From contig CAWCIZ010000001.1 of NCBI GenBank assembly GCA_963795855.1, positions 320,001-384,000 on the forward strand: 64,000 nucleotides of DNA, given 5' to 3'. Under the pieces are notes generated by a model that saw nothing but the letters and a program-made list of their open reading frames with translations, made no database searches and was not told the origin of the DNA. This stretch comes from Vulcanimicrobiota bacterium. Lineage in GTDB: Bacteria; Vulcanimicrobiota; Vulcanimicrobiia; Vulcanimicrobiales; Vulcanimicrobiaceae. The position numbers and the translations under genes were made by a program. Of the stretch, positions 24,673 through 43,668 are shown one piece after another. How positions within the stretch are numbered: position 1 is the first letter of the stretch; each line of letters begins with the position of its first letter.

Positions 24673-24707
24673 CGGCGCGCAAAGCGCCGCCCGCGCGCAT
24701 TGAGGAT

Positions 24708-26744
24708 TTGGCCGGCGTAGGCGGCGAAACGGCGGAGCGCTTCGCGGAACTCGGCATCCGCACGCCGCTCGACTTGCTGAGCGATTTTCCGTACCGCTAC
24801 GAAGATCTGCGTTATCCGACGCCGGCATCGGCGTTGGGGCTCGGGCGGGGCGAAAATGCCGAGGAAAATGCCGTCGGGCGGATTGTGTGGGTCAAGGAAC
24901 GGCGCGCGCGGCATCTGGCAATCGTGGAAGCGGAACTCGAAGACGAAAGCGGCACGTTCGTTGCAACGTGGTTCGGGCGAACGTATCTCATCGGCGCGCT
25001 GAAGAAAGGGATGCGCCTCTTCGTTCGCGGCCGCGTGCAGCGCACGCTCGCGGGTGCGAAGATGAATGTGGTCACGCATCGCGTGCTCGCGGAGAACGAA
25101 ACGTACACCGGCGAAATCGTGCCGGTGTATTCCGCCAGTAAGACGCTGACGACGCGCAAAATTCATCAAGTGATTTCGCGCAATCTGCCGCACCTGTTGC
25201 TGCTGGCCGTCGAGGATCCGCTGCCGCCATCGATCGTGAGGGAAAAAGCCTTTCCGGCACTCGAGAAGGCTTATCGCGCGATGCATGCGCCGCAAAATCC
25301 GGAGGACGCGGAAAAAGCGCGCGAGCGGTTCATCTTCACCGAGTTTCTCGCGCTTGCGCTTGCCGCGCAGTTGAAGCGCCGCGAACGCAGCTCGGAACAC
25401 ACCGCAGAGCGATTGCGCGCCGCGCCGACGCTGCTTGCCGAATTGGAACGCGAGTTGCCGTTCCCGCTCACGGGCGCCCAGCGGCGCGTCATCACCGAGA
25501 TCTGGGGCGACATGGCGCAGGACGCGCCGATGAACCGGCTTCTGCAGGGCGACGTCGGAAGCGGCAAAACGCTCGTTGCCGCCGCGGCCATTCTGCTTGC
25601 GTCGCGCAGCCGCGTTCAATCCGCACTCATGGCGCCGACGGAAATTCTCGCAGCGCAGCACGCCGCCAAACTCGCGCCGCTTCTGGTTCCCTTCGGCATT
25701 ACGGTCGAAGCCGTCTTCGGAAGTCAGAGCGCCAAAGCGCGCGCCGTCGCGGCGCAGCGCATCGCAAGCGGTGAAGCGCTGCTTGCGGTCGGCACGCATG
25801 CCCTGCTTACCGAGGGCGTGGATTTCAAGCGCCTCGGGCTCGTGGTAATCGACGAGCAGCACCGCTTCGGCGTGCAGCAGCGCGCGCGTTTACGCGCCAA
25901 AGGCGTCGCGCCCCACACGCTTCACATGACGGCGACGCCGATTCCGCGCACGTTGGCGCAATCGATTTACGCGGACTTGGACGTCTCGACCATCGACGAA
26001 TTGCCGCCGGGGCGCACGCCGATCGAAACCTTCGCGCTGCGCCGCACGCGTTTGCATCTGGCGTACGACTTCGTCGAGAAGAACGTTGCCGCGGGACATC
26101 AGGCCTACATAGTAGCGCCCGCGATCGACGAATCGGAAAACGATCTCACGAGCGTCGTCGCGGAAGCCGAGCGTCTGCAGAACGACGTGTTTCCGCATTT
26201 GAAACTCGGACTGCTGCACGGACGGATGACGCCGCGCGAAAAAGAAGACGTGATGCAGCGCTTTTCGCGGAACGACCTGCAGGTGCTCGTGGCGACGACC
26301 GTCATTGAGGTCGGCGTGGACATTCCCAATGCCAGCGTCATGGTGGTGCTCGACGCCAACCGATACGGGCTGGCGCAACTGCATCAGCTGCGCGGCCGGG
26401 TCGGGCGAGGTGCCGCCAAGTCGTATTGCCTGCTCATTGCGCCGGACGAAGCGGGCGAAGTCGAGCGCTTGCAGATCCTGACCGAATCTACGGACGGCTT
26501 CAAGATCGCCGAAGAAGATTTGCAACTGCGGGGGGCGGGCCAGTTCGCCGGCACGGCCCAGTCGGGCAGGACCGAGTTTCGCTTCGGCGACATCGTCCGG
26601 GATTTCGCGCTTTATAAAGAAGCCAGCGCAATCGCTGCGCGGATCGTTCAGGACGATTCGACGCTCGAGCGCGTCGAGCATCGCGGCCTGCGCGCGCTGA
26701 TCGAGGGCGAACCCAGCGCGAGGGCGATGCTCCTGTCGTCTTGA
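24708..26744 (+). CDS. recG: ATP-dependent DNA helicase RecG
   Basis: RLLQGDVGSGKT, MAPTEILA, IDEQHRFG, MTATPIPRTL, QLHQLRGRVGRG; start uncertain. Confidence 0.95.
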   Translation: MAGVGGETAERFAELGIRTPLDLLSDFPYRYEDLRYPTPASALGLGRGENAEENAVGRIVWVKERRARHLAIVEAELEDESGTFVATWFGRTYLIGALKKGMRLFVRGRVQRTLAGAKMNVVTHRVLAENETYTGEIVPVYSASKTLTTRKIHQVISRNLPHLLLLAVEDPLPPSIVREKAFPALEKAYRAMHAPQNPEDAEKARERFIFTEFLALALAAQLKRRERSSEHTAERLRAAPTLLAELERELPFPLTGAQRRVITEIWGDMAQDAPMNRLLQGDVGSGKTLVAAAAILLASRSRVQSALMAPTEILAAQHAAKLAPLLVPFGITVEAVFGSQSAKARAVAAQRIASGEALLAVGTHALLTEGVDFKRLGLVVIDEQHRFGVQQRARLRAKGVAPHTLHMTATPIPRTLAQSIYADLDVSTIDELPPGRTPIETFALRRTRLHLAYDFVEKNVAAGHQAYIVAPAIDESENDLTSVVAEAERLQNDVFPHLKLGLLHGRMTPREKEDVMQRFSRNDLQVLVATTVIEVGVDIPNASVMVVLDANRYGLAQLHQLRGRVGRGAAKSYCLLIAPDEAGEVERLQILTESTDGFKIAEEDLQLRGAGQFAGTAQSGRTEFRFGDIVRDFALYKEASAIAARIVQDDSTLERVEHRGLRALIEGEPSARAMLLSS

Positions 26745-26755
26745 ATTCCGGGCGC

Positions 26756-29428
26756 ATGAACAATGCAGTACGCTTCGTCCGTGCGGCCGCCTTGGTTATC
26801 GGGGCGGCTTTTTTCGCGCATTTGCCCGCGGCGGCGCAGCCGCTTCAAGTGACGCGCGCAACGCTCCGGAATGGTTTGCAAGTCGTGGTCGTTCGCGATC
26901 CGCTCGCGCCGGTGGTCACATCGGTTCTCAATTACCGCGCCGGTTCCAACGAGCAGCAGTTCCCCGGCGAAGCGCACGCCCTCGAACATATGATGTTCCG
27001 CGGCACGCCCGACGTATCGCAAACGCAACTGTTCGAAATCAGCCAGTTGATGGGCGGCGATTACGACGCGGACACGCAAGCGGAAGTCACGCAGTATTTC
27101 TTCCAGGTACCCGCGCAGTATCTGGATGTGGCGCTGCGCGTCGAAGCGGACCGCGCAAAACATGTGACGCTCGCGCAGTCGGGATGGGAAGCCGAGAGCG
27201 GCGCCATCAAACAAGAAGTGACTCAAGACGACAGCGTACCGATCGAAAAGTTGTTTCTTCGCACCATTTTACCGTCGATTTTCAAGGGTACGCCGTATGC
27301 CAAAGACGGCTTGGGCACCCTGTACTCCTTCAATCATCAAATCAACGCAGCCGTGGTGCGCAAGTTCTACGATGCGTGGTACCACCCGAACAACGCGACG
27401 TACGTCATCGCCGGTAATGTCGACGGCCCGTCGACCGTGAAGCTGGTCGAGAAGTATTTCGGAACGATCCCCGCGGCCAAATTGCCGGCGCGCGGCAGAG
27501 TCGTACTGCAGCCGATGAAGTCGGCGACCTACCACGTCGACAGCGATCAGCCGTACTCGATCGTCGCGATGGCATACCGGCTGCCGGGCTGGAAAGACAA
27601 AGATTACGCCGCCGCGCAGATTTTGGAATCGGTGCTGAACAACCAGCGCGGCGACCTCTACGGCTTGGTCGCGTCCGGAAAAGCGCTCTATGCGGGCTTC
27701 CAAGACGTTGAATCCCACGCGTACGCAACGGCGACTGCCGCGCTCTCCATCGTGCCCGTCACGACCAAAGCGGAAAGCGCGGAGGCGGACCTGCGTGCGG
27801 TTCTGCAGGCATATCGCACCAACGGTTTGCCGGCCGATCTGGTCGAAGTCGCGAAGCAGCGCGCGATTGCGGACGCGCAATTCGGTGGCAATTCGATCCA
27901 AGGGTTGGCGTTCGAATGGAGCGATGCCGTTGCCGCGCGCGGCGCGGCGTCGCCCGACGAGTTGATCGACGCGATGAAACGCGTGACCGTTGCCGACGTG
28001 AATCGCGTCTTCCGCGAATACGTGAACCCCGACAAGGCGATCGTCGCGTATGCGGTGCCGAAAAATATCGGCAAAGTGAGTGCCGGCGCCTCCGCTCCGG
28101 CCAAAGAAAACAATACGCTCACGCCGGAAAAGCCGCAGCCGCTTCCGGCTTGGGCGAGCGCCGCATTCTCAAAAGTCGAAGTGCCCGCGGACACGCTGCA
28201 TCCGGTTTCGATGACGCTCGCCAACGGCATGCGCCTCATCGTGGTACCGGAGCATGTGACGAAGACGGTGGAAGTGCACGGCTCCATTCTCTCGGACGAA
28301 GCGATTCAAGCGCCGGCCGATAAACAGGGCGTCGCGGACGTGCTTGCCGGCCTGTTTCCGTTCGGCACCGAGCAATACAGCCGCATTCAACTGCGCCGGC
28401 AGCTGGACCAAATTGCCGCCGACGTCGAAGCGGGAACGGATTTTTCGCTTCGCGTGCTAAGCGATAAATTCGACCGAGGCGTGCAATTGCTCGCGGATGA
28501 GGAACTGCATCCGGCATTGCCCGACGCGGCGTTTCAAATCGTGAAAGGGCAAACGGTCGGGTCGCTCACCGGAGAGATGACGTCTCCCGAACACCTCACG
28601 TCCGTCGCGCTGAACAAGGCGCTCTTCCCGTCCGACGATCCGCTGCAGAAGTTTGCGACGCCGCAAACGGCGAGTGCCGTTGGAATGGACGACGTGAGGT
28701 CGTACTTCGCGAGCGTTTACCGCCCGGACATGACGACCGCCGTCGTCATCGGCGACGTCACGCCGCAGCAAGTGCGCGCGACGTTCGAAAAGTATTTCGG
28801 CGCATGGACCGCGCACGGGCCGAAACCGGACGTGACGCTTCCGCAGGTTCCGAAAAACGACGCGGCGAGCGTCGTCGTTCCGGACGTCGGACGCGTGCAA
28901 TCCGACGTGCAGCTCGCGCAAGTGCTGGACTTGGCGCGCTCCGATCCGGATTGGGCGCTGCTGCAAGTCGCGAACAACGTGCTCGGCGGCGGCGGTTTCG
29001 GCTCGCTGCTCATGGACGACCTTCGCGTCAAACACGGCTACGTCTACGGTGCGTATTCGGAACTGAACTCGAATAAGAATCGCGCGACGTTCGTGTTGGG
29101 ATACGCTTGCGATCCGGACAAGATCGTTCCGGCCCAGCAGCTCGCGCTCGCCGATTTGCGAACGCTGCAGGAAGGCGTCATCTCCGCGGACCGGTTGACG
29201 CGCAGCAAAGCGATGCTGATGAGCGACGTGCCGCTGCGAAGCGCGAGTTTCGACGGCGTCGCTTCCCAATTGCTGCGTTTCGCGTCGTTCGGTCTACCCC
29301 TCGATCAGGCACAAATCGACGCCCAACGGGAACTTCAGGCACAGCCGGCCACGGTGCGGCAAGCCCTGGTGAAATGGGTCAACCCAAGCCGGTTCGTGCG
29401 CGTGGTCCGAGGCCCCGGGCCGAAGTAA
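26756..29428 (+). CDS. secreted M16 (pitrilysin-family) zinc peptidase
   Basis: signal peptide, LRNGL, HALEH (HxxEH), duplicated M16 halves, LRVKHGYVYG. Confidence 0.9.
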   Translation: MNNAVRFVRAAALVIGAAFFAHLPAAAQPLQVTRATLRNGLQVVVVRDPLAPVVTSVLNYRAGSNEQQFPGEAHALEHMMFRGTPDVSQTQLFEISQLMGGDYDADTQAEVTQYFFQVPAQYLDVALRVEADRAKHVTLAQSGWEAESGAIKQEVTQDDSVPIEKLFLRTILPSIFKGTPYAKDGLGTLYSFNHQINAAVVRKFYDAWYHPNNATYVIAGNVDGPSTVKLVEKYFGTIPAAKLPARGRVVLQPMKSATYHVDSDQPYSIVAMAYRLPGWKDKDYAAAQILESVLNNQRGDLYGLVASGKALYAGFQDVESHAYATATAALSIVPVTTKAESAEADLRAVLQAYRTNGLPADLVEVAKQRAIADAQFGGNSIQGLAFEWSDAVAARGAASPDELIDAMKRVTVADVNRVFREYVNPDKAIVAYAVPKNIGKVSAGASAPAKENNTLTPEKPQPLPAWASAAFSKVEVPADTLHPVSMTLANGMRLIVVPEHVTKTVEVHGSILSDEAIQAPADKQGVADVLAGLFPFGTEQYSRIQLRRQLDQIAADVEAGTDFSLRVLSDKFDRGVQLLADEELHPALPDAAFQIVKGQTVGSLTGEMTSPEHLTSVALNKALFPSDDPLQKFATPQTASAVGMDDVRSYFASVYRPDMTTAVVIGDVTPQQVRATFEKYFGAWTAHGPKPDVTLPQVPKNDAASVVVPDVGRVQSDVQLAQVLDLARSDPDWALLQVANNVLGGGGFGSLLMDDLRVKHGYVYGAYSELNSNKNRATFVLGYACDPDKIVPAQQLALADLRTLQEGVISADRLTRSKAMLMSDVPLRSASFDGVASQLLRFASFGLPLDQAQIDAQRELQAQPATVRQALVKWVNPSRFVRVVRGPGPK

Positions 29429-29515
29429 TTCAGCCTGTTTACCCGCTGGACGAGCAACTTCAGCGCGCTTTTTCTTGGTAATATAGTCCAAACGTCCTGC
29501 GATTTAGGTAGGAGA

Positions 29516-31286
29516 ATGGGCGGTACTTTCCCAAGCCTGGACCCAACAGCAACGCGTCCTATGGACTCGGGGGGTGCCGCCATATTTCAGCAAGCGGGCG
29601 CTGACAATCTCGTAGAGCCTTCCCAGCAACACCTTGCTCGTTTGCGCGCTTTGTGGGAGCTGTCGCTCGACCGGCAGAACCACGGGACGCAGATCGAAGG
29701 TTTACTGCAAGAGGCTCGCAGCGCATTGCAATGCGACTACGCGGAGCTTTGGAACGCGCGTTCCGAGCAGCGCGTCGCGTATGCAGGCTCTGACGCATCG
29801 CGCTCGCTCGGCGCGTTGGTAATCGCTGAGGACGTTCCGGCAGACGAACAAGCGATGTTCGTTTTGGAACCGGGTGAAGACGCGCAACTGCAAGCCACGC
29901 TGCGCAGGGCCGGGAAGTCGGCGCTTCTGGTTCGCCGGTTTGAAACGGGACGCGACCGCTACGCAATACTGTTTGCGTGGAGCGAGCGGCGTCCGCGCAC
30001 GCTGAGCCATGCCGAAGAGCAGTACCTCGATTTTCTACAGCACGTTGTCTCGCGCGTGTTGGTGCTTGCGGATAAGCATCGCGAACTTCACGATCGCATC
30101 TCGATCGATCCGCTCACCGGTTTGCAGAATCGCGCAGTCTACGCTCGATCGTATCGGTCATCTCGTTTCGTCCGCGCAGCGCACGCCCTCCGAATTCGCC
30201 GTGCTGTACGTCGATCTGAACGGGTTCAAACAGGTCAATGATTCCCACGGGCATGCCCTAGGCGATCAGGCGATTGCGGAAACGGCCGCGCGCATGCGGG
30301 CCGTGCTTCGCCGCCACGAAATGGCCGGACGGATCGGAGGCGACGAGTTTGCGGTGGTCGTGAAGTTCGACAGCCCCGCGGATTTGGAAGCGGTCGCGCA
30401 ACGCTTGATCGAAGCAATCGCCGAACCAATGACGTTCGGCGGCGTGCGCGTGCGTTTGAATGCCAGTATCGGCATCGCTACGTTTCCCGAGCATGCCGGT
30501 TCGGCGGACGAACTGCTGTCGCGCGCCGACAGCGCGATGTACGTTGCCAAGCGAGGCAACGGGCCGCACTACGCGTTCTACGACCCGCAAAACAAACCGC
30601 GCTTGCCGTCTGCGCCCCCGGTGCACGAAGCCGCGCCGCCGTTCGTGTTTTGCTTTCAGCCAATCGTGGATGCGCGAACGGGCCGCATCGTCGCGGCGGA
30701 AGCGCTCATTCGCTGGTTCGACCCTCTACGCGGGCTCGTGCTGCCGACGGCACTGAACGAGGGCGGCTCGATGCCTCGGCACATCGACCGCAGCGTCGTC
30801 GACACACTCACGCGCGGAGAATACGCGCAGACGCTGCGCGCGCTGCCCATTCACGTCAACGTGAGCGAAGCCGACGACGAATTGCTCGCCGCCTCGTCGG
30901 GCGACGCCGTCATCGCCTTGGAAATTCCGGAATCGCTCGTCGCAAACGAGGCCGATCGGTACGCGGAGTTCATCCGGAACGCGCGCAAGAGCGGCGTGCG
31001 TGTCGGGCTCTCGGATTTCGGCGGAGCCGGTCTGCCGCTGCGGTTTCTCGCCGATCTGCCCATCGACTTCGTGAAGATCGGGAAGATGTCCGCGGTCACG
31101 GCGCGCGCGGCAATCGCGCAAGCGCACCATTTCGGCTGGACCGTCATCGCCGAAAACGTGGAAGAGGAAACGCAGCGTGATTGGCTCGTAAGCGCGGGCG
31201 TCGACGCCGTGCAGGGCTACCAGATCTGCAGCCCGCTGACGCACCGCGATTTCACCAACTGGCTGCGCTATCGGATGCTGAAATAA
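29516..31286 (+). CDS. GAF-like / GGDEF / EAL protein, one frameshift near 30138
   Basis: DPLTGLQNR, then in next frame YVDLNGFKQVNDSHGHALGD, RIGGDEF, AEALIRW, QGY. Confidence 0.9.
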
Positions 31287-33667
31287 TGAGCGCACCTCGG
31301 CTCGCGCGGGATCGGCTCACCGCGCGGTTGCGCGCATCGGCTCGCTATGCAGCAACGGTCGTCTGCGCGCCCGAAGGGTTCGGAAAAACGACTGCGGTGC
31401 GCCAGTACGTGCAAACTCTCGATTGCGAAACGCTCGAACTCGCGCTGCTGCCCGAGCACGGCTCGCTCGCTGCATTCGCGCGCGCTCTCGCGCAGACGCT
31501 GGCGCCGGTCGCACCCGGTTTGGCGTCTTCGTACGCGCACGCGATCGAGTGCGCGCTGCAGTCCGACAAAGCGGAAGAAGAACTCGCGATCTGGTTCCTC
31601 GGGCATCTCGATCGGAAAACCGAGCGGCTCATCGTCGTGGACGATCTGCAGCATGCGAAAGGCGATCCGCGGATCGTTCGGCTCACGGAACGGCTGCTGC
31701 AAGGCGCGCGTCCCGGCTACCGCTGGGTCATCGCCGCGCGCGAACTTCCGGAGGCTCAGCGCTGGACCGCGAACGGCTTGTGCGCACCGGCGATCGACGA
31801 ACTCGAACTGCGCCTCACGCGCGAGGAAATGCGGCAAATCGCCGAGTCGATGGAAATCTCCGCCTCGCTCGCGGAGGCACTATACGGCATGAGCGACGGT
31901 TGGCCGCTGGCGTTCGGCCTCGGCGCGTCCATGCCGGAATGGATCGCGCGGTTGGAGCAGTTGAACCCGGCGAATGCACGCGGGTTGCTCGCCTTTTTGG
32001 CCGAGCAGTTTTTCTTACAATGCGACGCCGCGCTCCAAGGCGTTCTGCTCGATCTTTGCGTATTTGCCACCGTCGACGAACAGATCGCCGCGTTGGCGCC
32101 GTGGCGCGATGCGTGGCCGCAACTGCAGCGTCTCGCTCGAGACGGTCAACTGCTCCTCATGCGGCAAGACGGTTCCATTCAGTTGCGCGAGGTGTTCCGC
32201 CAATTTCTGGACGGCCGCCTGGCCCTGCGCGGTGAAGCCGCAGTGCGGCAGGCGTGTTCCGCCGCCGCGCACGTGCTCGAGTCGGGAGGGCGCGTCGCCG
32301 AAGCGCTTCGCCTCTACGCGCGCGCCAAAGACGACGCGAAAATTCTCGAACTCTGCGAGGAACACGGCTTCGCGCTCGTCGACGAAGGGCGAATCGAAGA
32401 TCTACTGCAGCAACTCGCGGTCATCGATCCGAAGGCGGCGAGCGAGCATCCCGCCGCGCTCTCGATCCACGCTATCGCCGAATCCAACGCGGGTCGCGAC
32501 GACATCGCCGAGTCGTGGTATCTGCTCGCGATCGAGCGCGCCGACACCCCGCAATTGCGCGCAAAAATTGCGTACCGGTACGGGCTCGAATTGGTGCGGC
32601 ACCGCCGCATGGACGGCGTCGCGATCCTCGAGCGCTACGTGGGCGCGGCACTCCCCGCGGACTTGGATGCATCGCTGCGCTCGACGCTGGCGACGGCGTA
32701 CGTGTTGGGCGAACGCTTTGCGGACGCGGGGCGCATGATCGCGACGGCGCTCGCGCTGCTGGATGGGTCATCGTCGAGCCAACTGCGCGCCAAGGTGCTC
32801 CACCACGCCGCGTGGGTGGCGCTCTTTACCGGAGAGGTTCAAGCCGCGAAAACGCAGGCGTCCGAAGCGGTGCGATTGGCTCTCGAGTGCGATATGTACG
32901 AAATCGCGGCGCGCGCGTATTCCGTGCTCTACAACATTTCGTACGACGTCGAAGACGATCCGGAGCGCACGCGCGAAACGCTCGATCGCATTTGGGACTG
33001 CGGCCTCAAAGCGGGCAGCGCGCAGATGCGGTGGTTCGCCCTGCTCGGCAACATCGACATTTGCGCCGAGATGGGCGATCGCAGCGGCCTTGCGGGGATC
33101 GAAAAAGTGCTCGCGGCTCACGGCGTCGATTACGCCGAGCGCGGAACCAGCGAAGCGCTGTTGCCGGCGGAGGCGCTGATGCTTGCCGCGCGCGGCGAAT
33201 TCGCGCACGCGTACGAGATTATTTTTCCGACCGGCGAGCGGCAAGTCACTCCCGATCGGCGCGCGCTGCGTTTCTCGGAGATCGCGTTGTACGCTTCGGC
33301 CGCCGGTCTGGACGAGAAAGCCGATGCGGCGCTCAAAGAAGTGCAGGCCCAACTCCGCGAATGCGACGCTTCGTCACGCCGGGCGATCCGGGCGCAGCTG
33401 AATCGCGCACTAGCCGTGTACCTCGCCGGACGTCGCGCGGAAGCCGCCGAGATCATCGATTACGTCGGGCAGTTCTGCAACGAGATGTCTCCGCGGCTGC
33501 GCGCGCTGTACGACGCGGTTTTAGAGATATTCGCCCACTGGGATGGTGCCGAGAACTACGACCGCGTGTACGATACGCTCGCGCGCCTCAAGGCCGCGCA
33601 CTTCGGCGGCGTCGCCGCGGCGATCGCCGCGCTTCCATGCAGCAGAGAGCAGGTGTCGGTTGCATAA
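31286..33667 (+). CDS. MalT-like STAND ATPase with TPR-like helical region, no C-terminal HTH
   Basis: RDRL, Walker A APEGFGKTT, Walker B LIVVDDLQ, ELRLTREE, SDGWPLA; ATG overlaps upstream stop (TAATG). Confidence 0.85.
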   Translation: MSAPRLARDRLTARLRASARYAATVVCAPEGFGKTTAVRQYVQTLDCETLELALLPEHGSLAAFARALAQTLAPVAPGLASSYAHAIECALQSDKAEEELAIWFLGHLDRKTERLIVVDDLQHAKGDPRIVRLTERLLQGARPGYRWVIAARELPEAQRWTANGLCAPAIDELELRLTREEMRQIAESMEISASLAEALYGMSDGWPLAFGLGASMPEWIARLEQLNPANARGLLAFLAEQFFLQCDAALQGVLLDLCVFATVDEQIAALAPWRDAWPQLQRLARDGQLLLMRQDGSIQLREVFRQFLDGRLALRGEAAVRQACSAAAHVLESGGRVAEALRLYARAKDDAKILELCEEHGFALVDEGRIEDLLQQLAVIDPKAASEHPAALSIHAIAESNAGRDDIAESWYLLAIERADTPQLRAKIAYRYGLELVRHRRMDGVAILERYVGAALPADLDASLRSTLATAYVLGERFADAGRMIATALALLDGSSSSQLRAKVLHHAAWVALFTGEVQAAKTQASEAVRLALECDMYEIAARAYSVLYNISYDVEDDPERTRETLDRIWDCGLKAGSAQMRWFALLGNIDICAEMGDRSGLAGIEKVLAAHGVDYAERGTSEALLPAEALMLAARGEFAHAYEIIFPTGERQVTPDRRALRFSEIALYASAAGLDEKADAALKEVQAQLRECDASSRRAIRAQLNRALAVYLAGRRAEAAEIIDYVGQFCNEMSPRLRALYDAVLEIFAHWDGAENYDRVYDTLARLKAAHFGGVAAAIAALPCSREQVSVA

Positions 33668-34589
33668 CGAGTTGCTGCGCGAGAAAATCTCGCGCCGCGC
33701 GTTGTCTCGCGCGCTTCCGCCCGAGCACCGCTCCATTCTCGCCGAAGTCGTTGCGAAGCGCACTGCCGACCGTATCGTCGCATGGACGTCCGACAAGGAC
33801 GTGAGCCGCGTATTTTCATGGGTGGACTCGGTGCTGCACGATCATCCGCAGCAACGGCGCCTCTACGGCCTGCTATCGTCGACCGTGAGCGCCGCGCTGG
33901 ACGTTCTCTCGGAAGAAACCCGCGTTCCGGTGCAATTACGCTCGAATCTCACGAGCCTGCAGCAGCGCATCGACATACATGTCGGCGCGTACTGCGTGCA
34001 GAACCACGACGGCGTCCTGCAAACCGTCGACCCGGTCGACGCGCGAATCGACGAGTTGTTGCTGCGCTTGTCGACTCAGGACACGCTCACCGCGGAGCAC
34101 TCACGCTCGGTCGGCATGTGGTGCTGGCGCGTGGCCAAACGTCTCGACCTTTCGCGGAGCGAATCGTACATCGTGACGCGCAGCGGTTTGCTGCACGACA
34201 TCGGCAAGACGCTGACCCCGCTCGAGATCCTTATCGCGCCGCGCGCGCTCACCAACGATGAATGGGAGATTATGCGCCGCCACGCCGCCGAGGGCGAGCA
34301 GATGGTGCGGCAGTCGGCCGAACTGCATACGTTCGCGCCCGCAGTGCGCTCGCATCACGAGCGTTTCGACGGCCGCGGTTATCCGGATGGATTAGAGCGC
34401 GGCTCGATTCCATTCTCCGCGCGCATCGTTTCCGTGGCGGATGCATTCAATGCGATGATTGCCCGGCGTCCCTACCGGGCGCCCTTGCCCCCGACGCATG
34501 CCATCGAGGAGCTCAAACGAAACAGCGGGACCCAATTCGATCCCGCTGTCGTCGAAGCTATGATTGACGTGGTGCTTAGTGGCGGATAA
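33660..34589 (+). CDS. HD-GYP c-di-GMP phosphodiesterase
   Basis: EHSRSV, LLHDIGK, HHERFDGRGYPDGL, VADAFNAM, RPYR; TTG 33660 overlaps upstream gene end. Confidence 0.92.
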   Translation: MHNELLREKISRRALSRALPPEHRSILAEVVAKRTADRIVAWTSDKDVSRVFSWVDSVLHDHPQQRRLYGLLSSTVSAALDVLSEETRVPVQLRSNLTSLQQRIDIHVGAYCVQNHDGVLQTVDPVDARIDELLLRLSTQDTLTAEHSRSVGMWCWRVAKRLDLSRSESYIVTRSGLLHDIGKTLTPLEILIAPRALTNDEWEIMRRHAAEGEQMVRQSAELHTFAPAVRSHHERFDGRGYPDGLERGSIPFSARIVSVADAFNAMIARRPYRAPLPPTHAIEELKRNSGTQFDPAVVEAMIDVVLSGG

Positions 34590-34893
34590 CCGACGAAATC
34601 CACCGCAAGTCGATCATCATCGGCGGAAGTCCCGCAACGCCGCTGATCATGACGAGCTTCGGAACGGCGCTCACGCTGTCCATCGGCTGAACTTTCGGCA
34701 CGGCACTGACGCTGTCCATCGGCTGAATCTTCGGCACGGCGCTGACGCTGTCCATCGGCTGAACTTTCGGCACGGCACTGACGCTGTCCATCGGCTGAAT
34801 CTTCGGCACGGCGCTCACGCTGTCGGCCATTGCCGGCGCTGCGGCGCAGACAACCGCGATTGTTCCAAAAATGAGGGTGCGATACGAAGTCAT
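34576..34893 (-). CDS. secreted multi-repeat peptide precursor (105 aa)
   Basis: GGAGG RBS and ATG 34893; signal peptide ending AMA; five DSVSAVPK units joined by (I/V)QPM. Confidence 0.85.
   Translation of the reverse strand: MTSYRTLIFGTIAVVCAAAPAMADSVSAVPKIQPMDSVSAVPKVQPMDSVSAVPKIQPMDSVSAVPKVQPMDSVSAVPKLVMISGVAGLPPMMIDLRWISSVIRH
34657..34824. repeat. 36-bp tandem repeat, four full units plus a 24-bp partial unit
   Basis: units start at 34681, 34717, 34753, 34789; alternating A/B variants. Confidence 0.97.
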
Positions 34894-35009
34894 AACGGCC
34901 TCCCAGAGCAGCAAGAGCCAATTACTGAAATCGTAGCGGTTCAAGGGCGAAACGGCATCTCGCATGACGATCAGAAGTTTGCTTGCTATCGGGAGAGAAT
35001 CTATCAGAA

Positions 35010-35579
35010 ATGCTAGATAGAGCCCACGCTCTTGAAGCGGAAGATCAACGCGCTCCACTGCTTCCCGAACAAGCAGCAGTTCTTGCGCGGCGCGCCACGC
35101 CGACGCTGTTCGTCGTGGACCGTCAGTTGCGTGTGCTGTATTGGCGCGCCGATCCGTCGGAGAGGCGCAAGGACCTGCTGCCGCTCGAGAACGGCGGTTT
35201 GCCGCCACTGCTCGAGTACTCGCTGCTCAAGCTCTTCGCTCACGAGCATGCGAGCGCCGACGGCGTGCGCCGCGCCGGCGTGACCGGTTCCGTGGCGATC
35301 CGCGTGCTGGAACTCTGCGGCGGCGGCTCGGGAGCAGCCTATGCGGTTCTCGTCGAGCGCATCGGGGTTCGCGATCAGTTGCTCGCCGTCGCCTCCCGCT
35401 ACGGACTTTCGACGCGCGAACGGCAAGTGCTCAACCTCGTGGTAAAAGGGCTTCGGAACGAGGAGATCGCCGAGCACCTGTGCATCTCCAAATCGACTGC
35501 CATCTTTCACGTGAAGCAACTTTTGATCAAGACCAAGTCCCGGAACCGGACGGAGGTCGTCGCGAAGATCATTGGCTAG
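35010..35579 (+). CDS. LuxR-family HTH regulator with PAS-like N-terminus
   Basis: GLSTRERQVLNLVVKGLRNEEIAEHLCISKSTAIFHVKQLLIKT; TLFVVDRQLRVLYW. Confidence 0.9.
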   Translation: MLDRAHALEAEDQRAPLLPEQAAVLARRATPTLFVVDRQLRVLYWRADPSERRKDLLPLENGGLPPLLEYSLLKLFAHEHASADGVRRAGVTGSVAIRVLELCGGGSGAAYAVLVERIGVRDQLLAVASRYGLSTRERQVLNLVVKGLRNEEIAEHLCISKSTAIFHVKQLLIKTKSRNRTEVVAKIIG

Positions 35580-36255
35580 CGCCGTTCGCGCGATCGGCTT
35601 CGACTTCGACCACACGCTCGGGATTGACAACAAACTCGAGCGTGTCGCATTTTTGCGGTTGCTCGAGCGCGCGTGCACGATAGGCGGACGCTGCATCGGA
35701 ACGCTCGCGGACGAAATCGTTCGCATCGACGCACTGCTGGCACGACAGCGTTCCGGCGGCTTTACGATAGAAGATGCCGTGCAACGCTTCGTAAGCGAGC
35801 GCGGCGTGAGCGATCCACGCCCGTTCGTTGACGAATACAAACGCATGGCGGTGCAGATGGTCGACTCGTTCGTCATACCCGAGCCGGGCGCGCCGGAAAT
35901 CCTTGCGGAGTTCCGCGCCCGCGGCATTCCGTGCGCCATACTGACGAACGGGTGGTCTCCGCTTCAGCAGCGCAAGGCGCAGCGGGTCGGATTCGAGGGG
36001 CCTGTGCTGGTGAGCGCGGACCTCGGCGTGCAAAAGCCGGATGCGCGCGCCTTCGCGCTCCTCGCGCAGACGCTCGAAACGCCATCGGAGTGCGTCGCCT
36101 ACGTCGGCGACGCGCCGGACACCGACGTCGCAGCCGCACTTGCGGCCGGAATGCGCGGCGTGTGGTTGGACGCGGAAGGCGCGGCGTATCCGCCTCGGTT
36201 GCCGCCGCCCTCGGCCGTCATACACGGTCTCACGGAACTTTCGGCACTCGTGTAG
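35572..36255 (+). CDS. HAD-family hydrolase
   Basis: FDFDHTL, ILTNG, KPD, YVGDAPDTDV. Confidence 0.9.
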   Translation: MASAVRAIGFDFDHTLGIDNKLERVAFLRLLERACTIGGRCIGTLADEIVRIDALLARQRSGGFTIEDAVQRFVSERGVSDPRPFVDEYKRMAVQMVDSFVIPEPGAPEILAEFRARGIPCAILTNGWSPLQQRKAQRVGFEGPVLVSADLGVQKPDARAFALLAQTLETPSECVAYVGDAPDTDVAAALAAGMRGVWLDAEGAAYPPRLPPPSAVIHGLTELSALV

Positions 36256-36266
36256 AATGGCCGCGC

Positions 36267-36815
36267 GTGCCGAAGATCACTGGTGGAAACTTGGGCAGCC
36301 GCAAGCTGAAGTCACCCAAGGGAATGAACGTGCGCCCGACTCCGGGCCGGGTCAAAGAGTCGCTATTCTCGATTCTGCAAACGCGAATCGCGGGTTCGCG
36401 GTTCCTCGATCTGTTTTCCGGCACCGGCGCGATCGCGTTCGAAGCGGCCTCGCGCGGCGCCGCCAAGGTGGTGTGCGTCGAAGGCCACCGCGAAACCGCT
36501 GAAGCCATCGGCGAGGCCGCCGAACAGTTCGGCGTGGCCGATCGCATTGAAGTCGTCTCGGCGCCGGTCGACCGCGCGCTCTATCGTCTGGACGGCCGGT
36601 TCGATATCGTGTACGCCGACCCGCCCTATGCGCAAGAGATTCCGCTGCAGATGTTCCGTCTGCTGCTCGAGCGCAAGTTGCTCGCGGAAGACGCCTTGGT
36701 CATCTTCGAACATAGCGCTCGCACGATTCTTCCGGAGATACCGGGGTACCGCGGCGTTCGTGAAGAAGTCTACGGCGATGTCGCTTTGGCATTCTTCACT
36801 CCCCAACGCGTATAA
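36267..36815 (+). CDS. rsmD: 16S rRNA m2G966 methyltransferase
   Basis: VRPTPGRVKESLF, LDLFSGTGA, EAASRGA, YADPPY; adjacent to coaD. Confidence 0.93.
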   Translation: MPKITGGNLGSRKLKSPKGMNVRPTPGRVKESLFSILQTRIAGSRFLDLFSGTGAIAFEAASRGAAKVVCVEGHRETAEAIGEAAEQFGVADRIEVVSAPVDRALYRLDGRFDIVYADPPYAQEIPLQMFRLLLERKLLAEDALVIFEHSARTILPEIPGYRGVREEVYGDVALAFFTPQRV

Positions 36816-36828
36816 CACGTTGGGCCGC

Positions 36829-37317
36829 GTGCCTCGCGCCATCTATCCCGGCTCGTTCGACCCTCCCACGAACGGCCATCTCGACGTGATCGAACGCGCG
36901 TCGAAGTATTTCAGCGAGTTGATCGTCGCCGTCGTCGTCAACCCGCAAAAGCGCGAACCGATGTTTACGCTCCGAGAGCGTGAGGAAATGATTCGCGAAT
37001 GCGTGGAACGGCTGCCCAACGTCCGCGTCGAGAATTTTCGCGGATTGCTGGCGGACTACGTGAAAGCTCAGGAAGCGGACGTCATCGTCAAAGGCCTGCG
37101 CGTCGTCTCGGATTTCGAAAGCGAGATGTCGACGGCATTGATGAACCGGGCGCTGTCCAACGTCGATACGATGTTTTTGATGTCCGATCAAAAATATTCG
37201 TTCGTCAGTTCGAGCATCGTCAAGGAAGTGTTCTTCCTTGGCGGAGACGTCGGGGCGCTGGTCCCCGATCCGGTCATGCGGGTCATGGCTACCAAACGAG
37301 AGACACTGCGAAAGTAA
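36829..37317 (+). CDS. coaD: pantetheine-phosphate adenylyltransferase
   Basis: YPGSFDPPTNGHLD, KGLRVVSDFE, VSSSIVKE. Confidence 0.96.
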   Translation: MPRAIYPGSFDPPTNGHLDVIERASKYFSELIVAVVVNPQKREPMFTLREREEMIRECVERLPNVRVENFRGLLADYVKAQEADVIVKGLRVVSDFESEMSTALMNRALSNVDTMFLMSDQKYSFVSSSIVKEVFFLGGDVGALVPDPVMRVMATKRETLRK

Positions 37318-37345
37318 GCGAACTATAAACGGGAGGCTACAGCAC

Positions 37346-37905
37346 ATGTCGGTTTATCGCGTTCTGGAAAAGCTCGAGGGTTACGTGCAGGAAGGCACGT
37401 GGCTGCCCGCAGGCTACCGCATTTTGAGCGAAGAGCGGCTCGTCGAGTTCATCGAGAAAATCCGCGCCTCGCTTCCGGAGGAAGTGGGACGAGCAAGATT
37501 ATCGCCAAGGATCAAGAGCGCATGATTCGCGCCGCGCAAGAGAAGGCGCAAGCGATCGTCACGGAGGCGACGTCGAAGCATCAGGAACTCGTCGACGATC
37601 ACGAGATCGTGGATCGCGCGCGTAAAACTGCGGACACGGTACTTCGCGAAGCGGAAGAACGCGCGCGGAAAGTGCGCGAAGGCGCCGATCAGTACGCGAC
37701 GCAGTTGCTCGGCGAGCTCGAGGCGCGCCTATCCGGCGCGCTCGGATCCGTGAGAAAAGGGCGAGAAGCGCTCGCTCCTCGACCGCCCGCGTCCCGTCCG
37801 CCGGCGCCGCTCGCCGAAGCTGCTGCTAAAAGCAAACGAGCCGCGTTCGATGCACAGGCCTCGGAAGAAACGGCCGCTCTGGAGTCGGTAGAACTGGTAC
37901 AATAG
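37346..37905 (+). CDS. coiled-coil protein of the kind often found after coaD, frameshift near 37490
   Basis: GGGAGG RBS; IRASLPEE...AQEKAQAIV...GADQYA...GREAL. Confidence 0.75.
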
Positions 37906-37909
37906 CGGT

Positions 37910-38890
37910 GTGACGCGACTCACGCCGGCTCGTAACCGGTTTCGCCTTTACGTTGCGGCCGCCGTGTTGGCGGCCGTGGCGTCGTTCGCGCCGACGCCGT
38001 ATTCGCTGATGCTGCCCGGGCGCGCGGTCGATTTGCGCGGCGTCGTCAGCGTCGCGCGGCACGCCGCCCCGCGAACGCCGTTTTTCCTGACCGACGTTCG
38101 GTTCGCATCGCACGTAACGCCGTTGCAACTGCTTGCCGCGATGCTTCCCGGCGCCACGATTCTGCGCACGCAGCAGATCGTGCCCGGCAGCATGACCGCC
38201 GTCGAGTATGAAGGCGTCGAACGCGAAGCGATGAGCGAGAGCCAGTCGATCGCGGCGGTCGTCGCCGAGCGCGCCGCGGGACTCAAAGTACCGTATCCGC
38301 GATCGCGCGTGCTCGTCGTGTATTTTTCACCTGCGTCTCGCGCGTCCAAGGCGCTCCGGCCGCTCGACATGCTCGTTGCGCTCAACGGGCATCCAATCGC
38401 TTCGAACGTCGACGTGATTCACGCGCTCGCAGGCGTGCGTCCCGGTACGGACGTGCGCATGACCGTGGTCCGCCGCGGAAACGATCTCGTGGTCAATGTG
38501 CCGACCATGCGTTACGGCGATCGCACGGCGCTCGGCGCATACCTCACGACCATTTACCAGCGTCCGCAGATTCCGGTCGCGGTAACGTTTCATCTTCCGG
38601 ATGTTTCCGGCAGCTCGGGGGGACTGATGTTTGCCCTGGACATTTACCGGCGCCTTCGCCCCCACGTGCTGCACGTTGCCGAACCCGTCGCCGGCACCGG
38701 CACGATCGCGTATGACGGCAGCGTCGGCCCCATTGAAGGCGCGCCGCAAAAAGTTATCGCCGCGCGGCGCGCGGGCGCGAAAATCTTTCTCGTGCCGCGG
38801 GAGAATTACAACGAAGTCGCGCGCACTAGCGGGATTCGCGTCATCCCGGTCGCGACGTTCCGGCAGGCGCTGCGCGCGCTCGATCGTTAA
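37910..38890 (+). CDS. YlbL-like PDZ / Lon-type S16 protease
   Basis: N-terminal TM, PDZ-like region, SGSSGGLMFAL, AGTGTI, QKVIAA. Confidence 0.88.
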   Translation: MTRLTPARNRFRLYVAAAVLAAVASFAPTPYSLMLPGRAVDLRGVVSVARHAAPRTPFFLTDVRFASHVTPLQLLAAMLPGATILRTQQIVPGSMTAVEYEGVEREAMSESQSIAAVVAERAAGLKVPYPRSRVLVVYFSPASRASKALRPLDMLVALNGHPIASNVDVIHALAGVRPGTDVRMTVVRRGNDLVVNVPTMRYGDRTALGAYLTTIYQRPQIPVAVTFHLPDVSGSSGGLMFALDIYRRLRPHVLHVAEPVAGTGTIAYDGSVGPIEGAPQKVIAARRAGAKIFLVPRENYNEVARTSGIRVIPVATFRQALRALDR

Positions 38891-39835
38891 ACGGGCGGTG
38901 CTTGAACGTTCTGCGCAAACGCGTCCAAGCGGGCGCGATCGATCGCTTTGACGCGGCCGCGATCCAACTCTACCGCGCCGGCGTTCTTCAGACGCAGTAA
39001 AGCGCGAGCGGCCATGTCGCGCACGGTGCCGGCGGCAGCCGCGATTTGCGCCTGCGAAAGATTTTCGACGCCCGGAAGGCCGCGCGTCATCCCGACGGAC
39101 GCGCGCGCGTAGCCGAGCAAGAACTTCGCGACGCGCTGCAGCACGTGCGCGAACGCCAAATCGGAGATCGTATCGATGGAACGGCGGCGCCCCTGCGAGG
39201 CGGCCGCCAAAAATCCGAGGGCGAGTTCGGAGTCGTTGCGGCACGCGTGCAGCACCGCTTCGCTGGGAAGCGTGACGATCGTCGCGTCGGTAAGCGCTTC
39301 CGCACGCGTGGTAGCGCCGCCCTGATCGAACGCGCCGGAATCGTTGAGCATGTCGTGCGTGAGTCGCTCGCCTAGCGTGTGCGTTTTTCCGTCCGGGGAA
39401 AGCAGCGTGAGAATCGCTTTGCCGTGCTTGACGATGCCCAGGTACGGCCACATCTCGCCTTCGTCGAAGATCGTTTCGCCGGCTTTGAACGTTCGTTCGC
39501 TCATCTGCCCGGCGAGATCGCGCGTGGTGCTGCTCTTCGCGGTCGCAAACGGCGGAACGTGCTGCGAGAAACGCCTCGCCTTCCGCGTTTTCGTCGATCC
39601 GTTCCAAGCGGACCGTCCAGCGGTTCGAACCCAAGTTGCGCGCATCCCACGAGAACTTGCCGGGGCGCAGCTGCGTGATTTCGTTTCGAAGCGCGCGCGG
39701 ATCGGTCTCCTCGTTGATTTCGAGGACCGCGCCCACTGTCAGTTTGTCGAAGGCGTCGAGAATCTGCTCGGTCTTGGTCGCAGGCGGAAGCGAGCGGGCA
39801 TCAAGCGTGATGGCCGCGGGACGGTTCATAGGCAT
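38887..39835 (-). CDS. DUF2249-like domain fused to Crp/Fnr regulator, frameshift near 39575
   Basis: LDARSLPP...FDKL...DPRAL; then cNMP-binding region and LSQAQIAAAAGTVRD HTH. Confidence 0.82.
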
Positions 39836-39897
39836 CGGGCCGTTGGTTCCCTGCGGGAGCGGGAAACCCCGCCTGACCCGGCGATAGTTGTAATCCC

Positions 39898-41109
39898 ATG
39901 TCCATCCCCATTTCCGACACCGACGTAGTCGTCATCGCCGGCGCCCGCACGCCGTTCGGCAACTTCGGCGGCGTGTTGTCAAGCCTTTCGGCCACCGACC
40001 TTGCGGTGCATGCGGCGCAAGCCGTTCTCCAGCGGAGCGGCGTTCCGAAAGAGCGCATCGACGACGTCGTCTTCGGCAACGTCATGCAGACCAGCGCCGA
40101 CGCGATCTATCTCGCGCGGCATGTGGGTCTTCGGTCCGGCATCCCGATCGGCGTTCCCGCGCTTACGTTGAACCGTTTGTGCGGCAGCGGGCTGCAAGCG
40201 ATTCTGACTGCAGCGAATGCGCTGCGTTTGGGTCAGAGCACGTACGCGCTCGCGGGCGGCACCGAGTCGATGAGCCAAGCGCCGCACGTCGTGCGCGGTG
40301 CGCGGAACGGCTTCCCGCTCGGCTCGAGCGTGAAATTCGAAGACACGCTGTGGGAAGCGCTGACCGACTCGTACAACGGCTTGCCGATGGCGATCACCGC
40401 GGAAAACCTCGCGGAACGCTATGCCGTGCCGCGTGAAGCGTGCGATGAGTTTGCGCTGCAATCGCAAGAAGGCGCGCTGCAAGCGCAAGGCGACGGCTAT
40501 TTCGCCGAAGAGATCGCTCCAATCGAGATCAAAGATCGAAAAGGCGCAATCACTGCAATCGATCGCGACGAAGGACCGCGCGCCGGTTTATCGATGGAAA
40601 AACTTTCGAAACTGCCGCCCCGCTTCCGTAAGGACGGCGTCGTTACGCCGGGCAACGCGAGCGGTATCACCGACGGTGCGGCAGCCGTCGTGCTTACGAC
40701 GGTGAAGCAAGCCAAAGCGGATGGATTGACGTGGATCGGCCGGCTCGCGGGCGCGAGCGTCGTCGGCGTCGATCCGGACGTCATGGGCATCGGCCCCGCC
40801 GTCGCGATTCCGAAAGCGCTGCAGGACGCAAACGTGAAATTGAACGACGTGAAGGTCATCGAAATCAATGAGGCTTTTGCGCCGCAAGTGCTCGCATGCC
40901 TCAAGGAAATGAGAATCGCGCGGGGCGACGGTGCGCGAATCAACCCGCACGGCGGCGCGATCGCTCTCGGGCATCCGCTCGGCGCGTCCGGTGCGCGGAT
41001 CGCGTATACGGCGATGCACGAGTTGCGGCAAAACGGCGGCGGCTTCGCAGTCGCGTCCGCCTGCATCGGAGGCGGCCAAGGCATCGCGGCGGTCTTCACC
41101 GCGGAGTAA
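39898..41109 (+). CDS. acetyl-CoA C-acyltransferase (thiolase)
   Basis: NRLCGSG, GNASGITDGA, EINEAFA, GHPLGASG, CIGGGQG. Confidence 0.96.
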   Translation: MSIPISDTDVVVIAGARTPFGNFGGVLSSLSATDLAVHAAQAVLQRSGVPKERIDDVVFGNVMQTSADAIYLARHVGLRSGIPIGVPALTLNRLCGSGLQAILTAANALRLGQSTYALAGGTESMSQAPHVVRGARNGFPLGSSVKFEDTLWEALTDSYNGLPMAITAENLAERYAVPREACDEFALQSQEGALQAQGDGYFAEEIAPIEIKDRKGAITAIDRDEGPRAGLSMEKLSKLPPRFRKDGVVTPGNASGITDGAAAVVLTTVKQAKADGLTWIGRLAGASVVGVDPDVMGIGPAVAIPKALQDANVKLNDVKVIEINEAFAPQVLACLKEMRIARGDGARINPHGGAIALGHPLGASGARIAYTAMHELRQNGGGFAVASACIGGGQGIAAVFTAE

Positions 41110-41110
41110 C

Positions 41111-41650
41111 ATGAACGATCGACCCTCCAAGCGGCCATGGTTCACGCTTTCCCGCGCCTTGGATGCTCTCGCCGTGCTCCTCGTGCTGTTCGTGGCGTAC
41201 CGGATCTTCGTCGCGCCGCGGTATCTGAGCACTCGCAACGCGCACCCGGCGCCGCGTGTCGTCTATCAAACGCTGGACGGAAAGCCGTTCGCGCTCGCGC
41301 AGCAGCACGGACGCGTCGTGTTTCTCGATTTCTGGGCGTCTTGGTGCGAGCCGTGTAAGCTTTCGCTGCCGATGGTCGAAAAGTTCGCCCGTTCTCATCC
41401 GAAAGTGGAGGTCGTTCCGGTCGACGTCGGCGAGCCGCGGGACGTGGTCGCCGCATTTGCGCGCTCTCACGCCATGCAAAACGTGGCGCTGGATCCCAAG
41501 ACGCTTTCACAAGGCTTTTTTCAAATCGAAGGCTTCCCGACGATGGTCGTGATCGATCCGCAAGGCCGCATCCGCGCAACCTGGACCGGCTTCAATCCGG
41601 CCATCGCCGCGAACATGGCGCACGCCGAACGGGTTCTTTCATCGTCGTGA
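41111..41650 (+). CDS. TlpA-family membrane-anchored thiol-disulfide oxidoreductase
   Basis: N-terminal TM, DFWASWCEPC, GFPTMVVIDPQG. Confidence 0.9.
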   Translation: MNDRPSKRPWFTLSRALDALAVLLVLFVAYRIFVAPRYLSTRNAHPAPRVVYQTLDGKPFALAQQHGRVVFLDFWASWCEPCKLSLPMVEKFARSHPKVEVVPVDVGEPRDVVAAFARSHAMQNVALDPKTLSQGFFQIEGFPTMVVIDPQGRIRATWTGFNPAIAANMAHAERVLSSS

Positions 41651-42630
41651 ATGTTCCGAAAGCCGAGATCCACATCCATTTGGAAGGCGCCACGAGCGCC
41701 GAAACCTATTTCGAAATAGCAAGACGCAACGGCGTGGAGTTGCCCGCACACGACCTGCCGCAGTGGCGGGATTTTTTTCATTACGACGACTTCGATCACT
41801 TCATCGAGGTGTACGTTACCTCGACGAAACTCTTGCGGCGCGCCGAGGATTACGAATTCATCGTGCGGCGGTTCGGCGCTCGGCAAGCCGCGCTGAACGT
41901 GCAGTACACCGAAGCGTTCGTGAGCTGTTCGCTCGTTCCGTCCGGCGTCGCTGCGGAGGAATTTCTGGACGCGCTGCGCCGCGGGAGCGAGTCGGTGGAA
42001 CGCGATCACGGAGTCCGCGTCGCCTTCATCGGCGACATCTCGCGCGAGCTTCCGGACAGCCGCCATCGCGTCGTGGATCTGGTCAGCCAAGGACGCAAGC
42101 GCGGCACGTTCATCGGTTTGGGACTCGGCGGTCCGGAAGTCGGCTTTCCGCCCGAGCTCTTCGAAGACGCGTTCGCGCGAGCGAGAGCCGCAGGCTTGCG
42201 CGTCGTCGCGCATGCGGGAGAAACCGGCGGCGCCAAAAGCGTGCGCGGCGCGCTGGATTCCCTGCGCGCGGAGCGCATCGGGCACGGCGTGCAGAGTTTG
42301 CAAGACGAAGCGCTCGTCGAGCGGTTGCGCGGCGAGGGCGTTCCACTCGAAATCTGCCCGCACAGCAATTACCGGCTCGGCGTCGTCGCGCCGGGCGAAC
42401 CGCATCCGATACGCGCGCTATTCGACGCAGGCGTCCGATGCACGGTGAATTCCGACGATCCGGCGATGTTCGAAACGGACATTAACCGCGAATACCAGCT
42501 GCTGGAGGAGCAAGGCTTTACCGCCGAAGAGCTGCGTCGCCTGAATGCGTGCACGCTCGATGCAACGTTTCTCTCCGATGCGGACAAACGCGCGCTGCGC
42601 GACCAGTGGGGCCTTACCGCGAACCTTTGA
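41647..42630 (+). CDS. add: adenosine deaminase family
   Basis: PKAEIHIHLEG, AHAGE, ERIGHG, EICPHSN, VNSDDP. Confidence 0.9.
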   Translation: MNVPKAEIHIHLEGATSAETYFEIARRNGVELPAHDLPQWRDFFHYDDFDHFIEVYVTSTKLLRRAEDYEFIVRRFGARQAALNVQYTEAFVSCSLVPSGVAAEEFLDALRRGSESVERDHGVRVAFIGDISRELPDSRHRVVDLVSQGRKRGTFIGLGLGGPEVGFPPELFEDAFARARAAGLRVVAHAGETGGAKSVRGALDSLRAERIGHGVQSLQDEALVERLRGEGVPLEICPHSNYRLGVVAPGEPHPIRALFDAGVRCTVNSDDPAMFETDINREYQLLEEQGFTAEELRRLNACTLDATFLSDADKRALRDQWGLTANL

Positions 42631-43591: not shown

Positions 43592-43668
43592 CTCGGCGGG
43601 ACGTTCGACGGACGCGCGCGCGAACGCTACCGAAGGAAGGCCCGCAGTGCGAAACAATACTGCAGGGT

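Follow-up and report, generated by a model that had tools for sequence, protein, structure and literature searches.

What is made from a small bacterial gene that encodes one heptapeptide five times over behind a predicted export leader, and which protein would read the product? The gene lies in the 64,000-nt stretch of DNA analysed here (the window), and an earlier note had taken it for a multi-core secreted precursor with a leader and five units. We confirm the open reading frame, with the same translation, as 105 aa on the minus strand (Table 1). The earlier interpretation stands as far as a conserved multi-core precursor is concerned; it missed the STAND-TPR / HD-GYP / luxR cassette around the gene and two sister architectures, and this context carries the main argument below. 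The gene probably serves signalling between cells, in a so far undescribed system of a phylum that has been little studied.

Table 1. Features of the precursor locus (window positions) and of the two sister layouts (locus positions).
Feature	Position	Strand	Evidence or remark
GGDEF-EAL gene, N-terminal part without Pfam family	29516..31286	+	directly upstream of STAND gene in 13/17 loci
MalT-like STAND ATPase + TPR sensor domain, no LuxR HTH, 793 aa; candidate receptor	31286..33667	+	AAA_22
HD-GYP protein, unannotated helical N-terminal part, start codon uncertain; candidate output	33660..34589	+	HD_5 E 2.5e-34
Precursor gene, 105 aa	34576..34893	-	ORF translation and homologues
Predicted Sec-type leader, residues 1-23 (basic residue, hydrophobic stretch, Pro at -4, Ala-x-Ala)	34825..34893	-	
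Heptapeptide core 1, Asp24-Pro30, directly behind predicted signal peptidase site	34804..34824	-	
Core 2	34768..34788	-	
Core 3	34732..34752	-	
Core 4	34696..34716	-	
Core 5	34660..34680	-	
Hydrophobic tail, 27 residues	34579..34659	-	
Ribosome-binding site of precursor gene (Shine-Dalgarno-type purine run)	34899..34903	-	5 bases before ATG; kept in 16 aligned loci
Conserved -10-like hexamer, three invariant positions; putative promoter element	34930..34935	-	16 aligned loci
Conserved 8-nt box about 21 nt upstream of hexamer; possible activator site	34957..34964	.	four invariant columns, 16 loci
Divergent LuxR-type regulator, unannotated ~115-aa N-domain + GerE HTH	34983..35579	+	GerE E 3.4e-13
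Sedolisin-like lipoproteins with heptapeptides	L096:2964-4148 (G000:C3); loci L104-L155	- (L096)	
Hydrophobic ORF, Pro/Gly-rich end, between STAND-TPR-HTH and HD-GYP	L097 ~4815-4740 (G000:C2, about 192815-192738); L174-L198	-	

The precursor gene and its heptapeptide family

The five eight-residue units of the window precursor are identical (starts at 34824, 34788, 34752, 34716 and 34680); as had been claimed, codon differences among them are all synonymous, and the sole amino-acid change, Ile/Val, falls in a linker. Part of this identity is due to recent duplication: TRF reports a period of 36 bp (4.7 copies, 89% matches) and also one of 72 bp at 96%, which marks units 2 + 4 as a recent dimer duplication, so that the five copies are not independent. 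Core 1 starts at residue 24, right behind Ala-x-Ala, as the earlier note had it, and would be released there by signal peptidase; the best nine-residue hydropathy of the leader is 2.74. The QPM that the note placed before the later cores does precede all four of them here, but these residues are not conserved as a cleavage signal in the family. The tail has the same length in close homologues and 0–74 aa across the family, and its amphipathic character is weak (median z 0.62).

The gene is indeed buried in a 210-aa ORF of the ORF list: a GTG-started frame (34576–35208) contains the precursor frame and runs antisense into the luxR-type gene. This ORF and the alternative frames were rejected, since homology begins at the ATG at 34893; a Drf_FH1 (Pfam) match to the precursor was set aside as compositional and below cut-off. 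Exact look-up in a collection of 15 billion proteins found neither the 105-aa nor the 210-aa product, and did find the neighbouring STAND protein (P0053). Sequencing reads gave one DNA run with a small share and one contig with the leader and intergenic part only. Among 32,461 ATG-started frames of 40–220 aa in this genome, 25 frames (about nine places) repeat a 7-mer at least three times, and only at the precursor locus does the first copy lie directly behind a hydrophobic leader; a tblastn search of the same genome found no second gene related to the precursor. Judged by translation and homology, the window gene is a real, conserved multi-core precursor with a predicted signal peptide.

Searches with the precursor yielded 9 close homologues and 42 profile matches, 36 of them short family members. 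Of 301 genomes searched in the class, 19 have matches, and all 19 belong to the same family as the window; the profile found none in 5 and 32 genomes of two other families. We analysed 58 precursors after removal of exact duplicates, six long low-complexity matches (three inspected, three judged by length) and two peptides matching or resembling unpublished genomes; P0025 was retained though the script misplaced its core. The leaders combine a basic residue within the first 8 positions (56/58), a hydrophobic core and Ala-x-Ala (Ala at -3 in 54/58, at -1 in 55/58). Core position 5 is Ala (49) or Pro (9), position 7 is Pro (54) or Phe (4), position 6 is mostly aliphatic and positions 1–4 are variable, giving 46 distinct first cores. 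Precursors are 40–189 aa long and carry one to eight copies, with linkers of 1–22 aa; 50 of the 58 are multi-copy and 8 are single-copy by script, one of these (P0025) misassigned.

Between the copies within a precursor, identity is 0.93–1.00 at positions 1–7, 0.52 at position 8 and 0.56 at -1 (50, 48 and 33 precursors, respectively); core identity is inflated by the repeat caller, which needed 4/7 matches and an identical position 7, and tandem-repeat concerted evolution also homogenises core copies, but the drop at position 8 is not built in. Codon changes, counted over pairs that are not independent, are 171 synonymous to 5 non-synonymous in cores and 34 to 28 in linkers. Residues flanking the cores are variable, with no clear cleavage motif in the family, and in two precursors the stop codon comes right behind core position 7. 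The start after Ala-x-Ala, the drop at position 8, the variable linkers and these two stops together indicate that the conserved unit is a heptapeptide, not an octapeptide, bounded by the predicted signal peptidase site and position 7. Of the 7–8-mer DSVSAVP(K) proposed earlier, the first seven positions correspond to the conserved unit; the eighth, a Lys invariant in all five copies of the window precursor, is in the family at large a part of the variable linker. Conservation of the core boundaries in homologues had been set beforehand as the test of the earlier reading, and the boundaries are kept.

Three tail-less precursors of 40–42 aa (L053:2080-2205, L085 and P0052) have Cys at core position 2 and a non-canonical cleavage site, two of them with charged residues in the leader; their export route may differ.

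The product need not be released at all. An intact periplasmic or surface protein of low complexity, anchored by the hydrophobic tail and perhaps O-glycosylated at Asp-Ser, would account for repeats rich in Ser, Ala, Pro and Val, for the fixed tail length in close homologues, and for Asp at position 1 (41/58) and Ser at position 2 (31/58); Asp-Ser is an O-glycosylation sequon in Bacteroidota. We consider this very unlikely, given that single-copy and tail-less members exist, that linker length varies so widely, that the conserved positions are 5 and 7 rather than 1–2, and that all neighbours are signalling genes. Still less probable, and in our view most improbable, is that the gene encodes a multi-core RiPP precursor and that enzymes with genes elsewhere cyclise or modify its cores into a bioactive product instead of a linear signal. 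The multi-core layout with terminal Pro does resemble cyanobactin and fungal cyclic-peptide precursors, and some members exchange Cys and Ser at core position 2. Against it, the predicted leader is of Sec type and not a recognition leader, no follower is conserved and position 2 is often non-nucleophilic; a Pfam scan of 19 ORFs across 24285–43657, two of them without a family, found no RiPP tailoring family, in keeping with the earlier note's remark that no such enzyme lies beside the gene.

Cassette and candidate receptor

The order in the window is GGDEF-EAL, STAND-TPR, HD-GYP, the convergent precursor, whose 3′ end is overlapped by that of the HD-GYP gene over 14 nt, and the divergent LuxR-type gene, whose start is uncertain (the ATG at 35010 is possible). 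The HD-GYP / precursor / luxR order is kept in 21 published genomes of one Eremiobacterota family, this genome included, and the STAND gene lies upstream in 18 of the 18 with that flank examined (one contig ends earlier and two were left out). The frame of the GGDEF-EAL gene breaks into two near 30130 and is unbroken in a relative; comparable frameshifts in several other genes of this genome suggest assembly errors. Full sigma-70 consensus sequences and terminators were absent from our scan.

The profile of the LuxR N-domain matches in 95 of 348 genomes, with 27 matches below 1e-16; five of these, in unpublished genomes, were set aside. The precursor gene is present at 21 of the remaining 22, the last lying at a contig end, and at none of six weaker paralogues examined. 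The N-domain has no Pfam match and no useful PDB match, and its Atlas neighbours are unnamed. A second LuxR-type copy near in sequence to that of the window (L076, G302:C62) sits at the end of a contig, which leaves just 200 nt upstream; either a further cassette or an artefact of binning may account for it. Behind another LuxR-type paralogue (L099:2450-3765, minus strand; G000:C2:104450-105765) comes a gene that has a hydrophobic leader and, in a different frame that the assembly leaves unjoined, about 14 tandem repeats of 8–9 residues rich in Arg, Val, Tyr, Ala and Pro.

The cassette has no conserved peptidase gene: an M16 peptidase adjoins in 1/17 relatives and a sedolisin-like one in 1/17. 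The secreted, two-domain M16 peptidase upstream of the cassette in the window (26741–29428) was on this count rejected as a member. Two further ORFs of the window are without Pfam family, 42614–43657 (minus strand), with a leader-like N-terminus, and 37399–37905 (plus strand).

The candidate receptor is the STAND-TPR protein. As in MalT-like proteins, an N-terminal STAND NTPase with Walker A/B, winged helix and arm is present, and residues 4–396 align by profile with MalT 8bob (NOD, winged helix, arm; E 3e-20). The C-terminal LuxR HTH is absent from the window protein, while two paralogues in this genome have a GerE HTH. The C-terminal 473 residues give an all-helical repeat model (pLDDT 95), with a TPR sensor domain such as RRNPP receptors and MalT-like STANDs have; Pfam TPR models on the protein scored below cut-off. 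Aligned with VIA-align, the model matches Rap3T (Z 20.4, rmsd 4.9, 340 aligned), NprR (Z 20.1, rmsd 5.7, 328 aligned) and MalT domain III (1hz4; Z 17.4, rmsd 4.5, 329 aligned), with APC/C subunits, unrelated eukaryotic TPRs, level with the first two at Z 20.0; Foldseek ranked generic TPR proteins first. The modelled fold is peptide-capable, which does not establish function. A predicted complex between the TPR domain and three units of the precursor scored 0.00 and is counted neither way, and a single-sequence fold of the whole protein was discarded at pLDDT 48.

STAND and HD-GYP form a single open frame in L052, L054 and the database proteins P0099-P0101 and P0103. In L052 and L054 the Walker A/B motifs are degenerate and the cores end in Phe, not Pro.

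Sister layouts in this genome and its relatives

This genome has three further STAND-TPR paralogues. One is followed by a sedolisin-like lipoprotein gene (sedolisin E 1.5e-5), in which three tandem heptapeptides of the same class as the precursor cores lie between lipobox and catalytic domain. We collected 70 homologous peptidase loci (the 30 best matches and 40 picked down the ranking, one of the 70 frameshifted). One to six heptapeptide cores, partly scored by eye, lie in 58 of these, and a STAND-TPR gene lies beside 55 of the 58 (two show none before the contig end, one has no flank); among 11 core-free loci, none has a STAND gene in the fetched flank. These heptapeptide lipoproteins span many more genera than the free precursor.

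Behind a second paralogue, STAND-TPR-HTH, lie a hydrophobic ORF of 25 aa and then an HD-GYP gene. In the clade of this paralogue, the third STAND clade, HD-GYP is present at 24/24 loci, and an ATG-only scan of these found a hydrophobic ORF of 20–26 aa that is clear in 17, variant in 4 (one variant has three tandem repeats) and absent in 3; these peptides are without the heptapeptide pattern. A third paralogous cassette (L098:3900-8600; G000:C1:58900-63560) contains an M16-like peptidase, a frameshifted STAND gene without HTH, an HD-GYP gene and a sedolisin-like lipoprotein, also frameshifted, in which one core-like heptapeptide occurs.

The sole partner common to all three layouts is STAND-TPR. 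The genomes are kin, so that the associations stand for a handful of independent evolutionary events and not dozens. None of our claims depends on the unpublished genomes.

The sister layouts bear on who would read a released heptapeptide. Another protein might do so: the LuxR-type N-domain, the N-terminal part of the HD-GYP protein, or a membrane receptor elsewhere. The LuxR-type gene is the direct divergent neighbour in all 21 cassettes, and its N-domain, free of any Pfam or PDB sequence match, forms a clade that coincides with the precursor. Yet at the 30 best sedolisin-like genes, all bearing same-class cores, neither the LuxR N-domain nor HD-GYP occurs within 1.5 kb, while a STAND match is found at all 30, and we regard a different receptor as unlikely. 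They also bear on whether the cores are signals. As protease-directed elements (cleavage-site arrays, competitive substrates or inhibitors), cores would serve the sedolisin-like lipoproteins, releasing the catalytic domain from its lipid anchor, with the free precursor acting as decoy or regulator; this fits their place between lipobox and catalytic domain, and Pro at position 7 with small residues at 8 suits a post-proline site. We hold it to be quite unlikely, because a cleavage site need not be identical at all seven positions within a precursor yet vary between lineages, and because the link to a cytoplasmic STAND-TPR protein and the cassette's missing conserved peptidase would be left unexplained.

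Proposed mechanism and comparison with known systems

On balance we lean towards an exported heptapeptide signal that is re-imported and read by the STAND-TPR protein, with a cyclic-dinucleotide output. By its conserved leader features, the precursor would be exported by Sec, signal peptidase I freeing the N-terminus of core 1. Extracytoplasmic peptidases, with the system's own sedolisin-like lipoproteins as candidates, may then cut after the terminal Pro and trim away the linkers, so that one precursor would yield as many as five identical heptapeptides. Re-entry could use a family-5 oligopeptide ABC importer, for which the genome has genes (26 SBP_bac_5 matches, fragments included). The recurrent genomic association and the fold suggest that the heptapeptide binds in the TPR superhelix and switches the ATPase or oligomer state of the STAND protein. 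Lacking an HTH, the latter would act on the neighbouring HD-GYP phosphodiesterase, to which it is fused in some genomes, and so, in opposition to the GGDEF-EAL protein encoded upstream, change the level of c-di-GMP or of a similar dinucleotide. The divergent LuxR-type protein may drive the precursor promoter, and core variation between lineages would give signal specificity.

Several observations tell against this reading of re-imported signal and STAND-TPR receptor. In the main layout the precursor adjoins HD-GYP and luxR, not STAND; the third-clade peptides differ in pattern; neither a cassette peptidase nor a cleavage motif is conserved; and the modelled fold matches unrelated TPRs of eukaryotes as well as it matches Rap and NprR. 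According to an excerpt of PMC9758169, the cultured member of the phylum is diderm, so that the peptide must cross an outer membrane to act between cells.

A broader proposal, which we offer tentatively as plausible but short of probable, is that MalT-like STAND ATPases of Eremiobacterota are a fourth, independent class of peptide-pheromone receptor, in which an NLR-like ATPase-TPR switch reads genome-encoded heptapeptides in a diderm host, with cyclic-dinucleotide turnover or transcription as output. The three precursor designs would be the multi-core secreted one, cores within a self-processing sedolisin-like lipoprotein, and a short hydrophobic peptide.

Intracellular peptide signalling has been described mainly for Bacillota and their phages. 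If the same logic operates here with a STAND receptor, a cyclic-dinucleotide output and a diderm host, peptide communication should be expected more widely, and orphan MalT-like proteins would gain a natural ligand class. Current detectors exclude the system by their length and adjacency rules. The 46 natural core variants and the neighbouring candidate receptors make specificity directly testable.

The nearest known systems are those of RRNPPA (Rap-Phr, NprR-NprX, PlcR-PapR, AimR-AimP). Excerpts of PMC11343458 and PMC9765709 describe duplicated pheromones there as Sec-exported propeptides with several copies of a 5–10-residue pheromone, re-imported by Opp to a cytoplasmic TPR receptor. The proposed likeness is of exported multi-copy propeptide, re-import and TPR receptor, with processing and binding putative here, and Rap3T and NprR are among the top structural matches of the TPR model. 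The differences are that the host is a diderm phylum and not Bacillota, that the output is apparently an HD-GYP enzyme, and that the first core directly follows the signal peptide. Multi-copy precursors are the rule here (50 of 58, up to eight copies), against 1–4 copies and a share of 6.7% of large propeptides in the same excerpts. The propeptide has 105 aa here and 40–189 aa across the family; the limits are 10–100 aa in RRNPP_detector and 50–120 aa in an excerpt of PMC11343458. The candidate receptor has 793 aa against the 250–500 aa of the detector, and an HD-GYP gene sits between it and the precursor; a precursor adjoins the receptor candidate only where STAND and HD-GYP are fused, as do peptide genes in the sister layouts. 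The system is thus proposed to work like RRNPP signalling but is not a member, since receptor length and gene adjacency put it outside two of the detector's five criteria.

The third STAND clade, in which a hydrophobic ORF with a distinct C-terminal segment comes directly behind the receptor candidate, is reminiscent of Rgg-SHP and ComR-ComS, taking SHPs as described in an excerpt of PMC10075063. That likeness applies to a paralogue and not to the window gene, and receptor class and host differ. The enterococcal pheromones are encoded within lipoprotein precursors and derive from the signal sequence. The sedolisin-like layout shares the placing of a putative signal within a lipoprotein precursor; its cores, unlike those pheromones, are in tandem, after the lipobox and inside a peptidase.

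MalT, which senses maltotriose, and the MalT-like (LAL) STANDs share NOD, winged helix and arm with the protein of the window, and its TPR sensor matches domain III; the differences are the missing HTH and the coupling or fusion to HD-GYP. We found no MalT-like protein linked to an encoded peptide ligand in the literature searched, which took in a minority of subscription journals, and no description of this signalling system in literature outside subscription papers and bioRxiv supplements. The precursor most likely belongs to an undescribed peptide-communication family read by STAND-TPR proteins.
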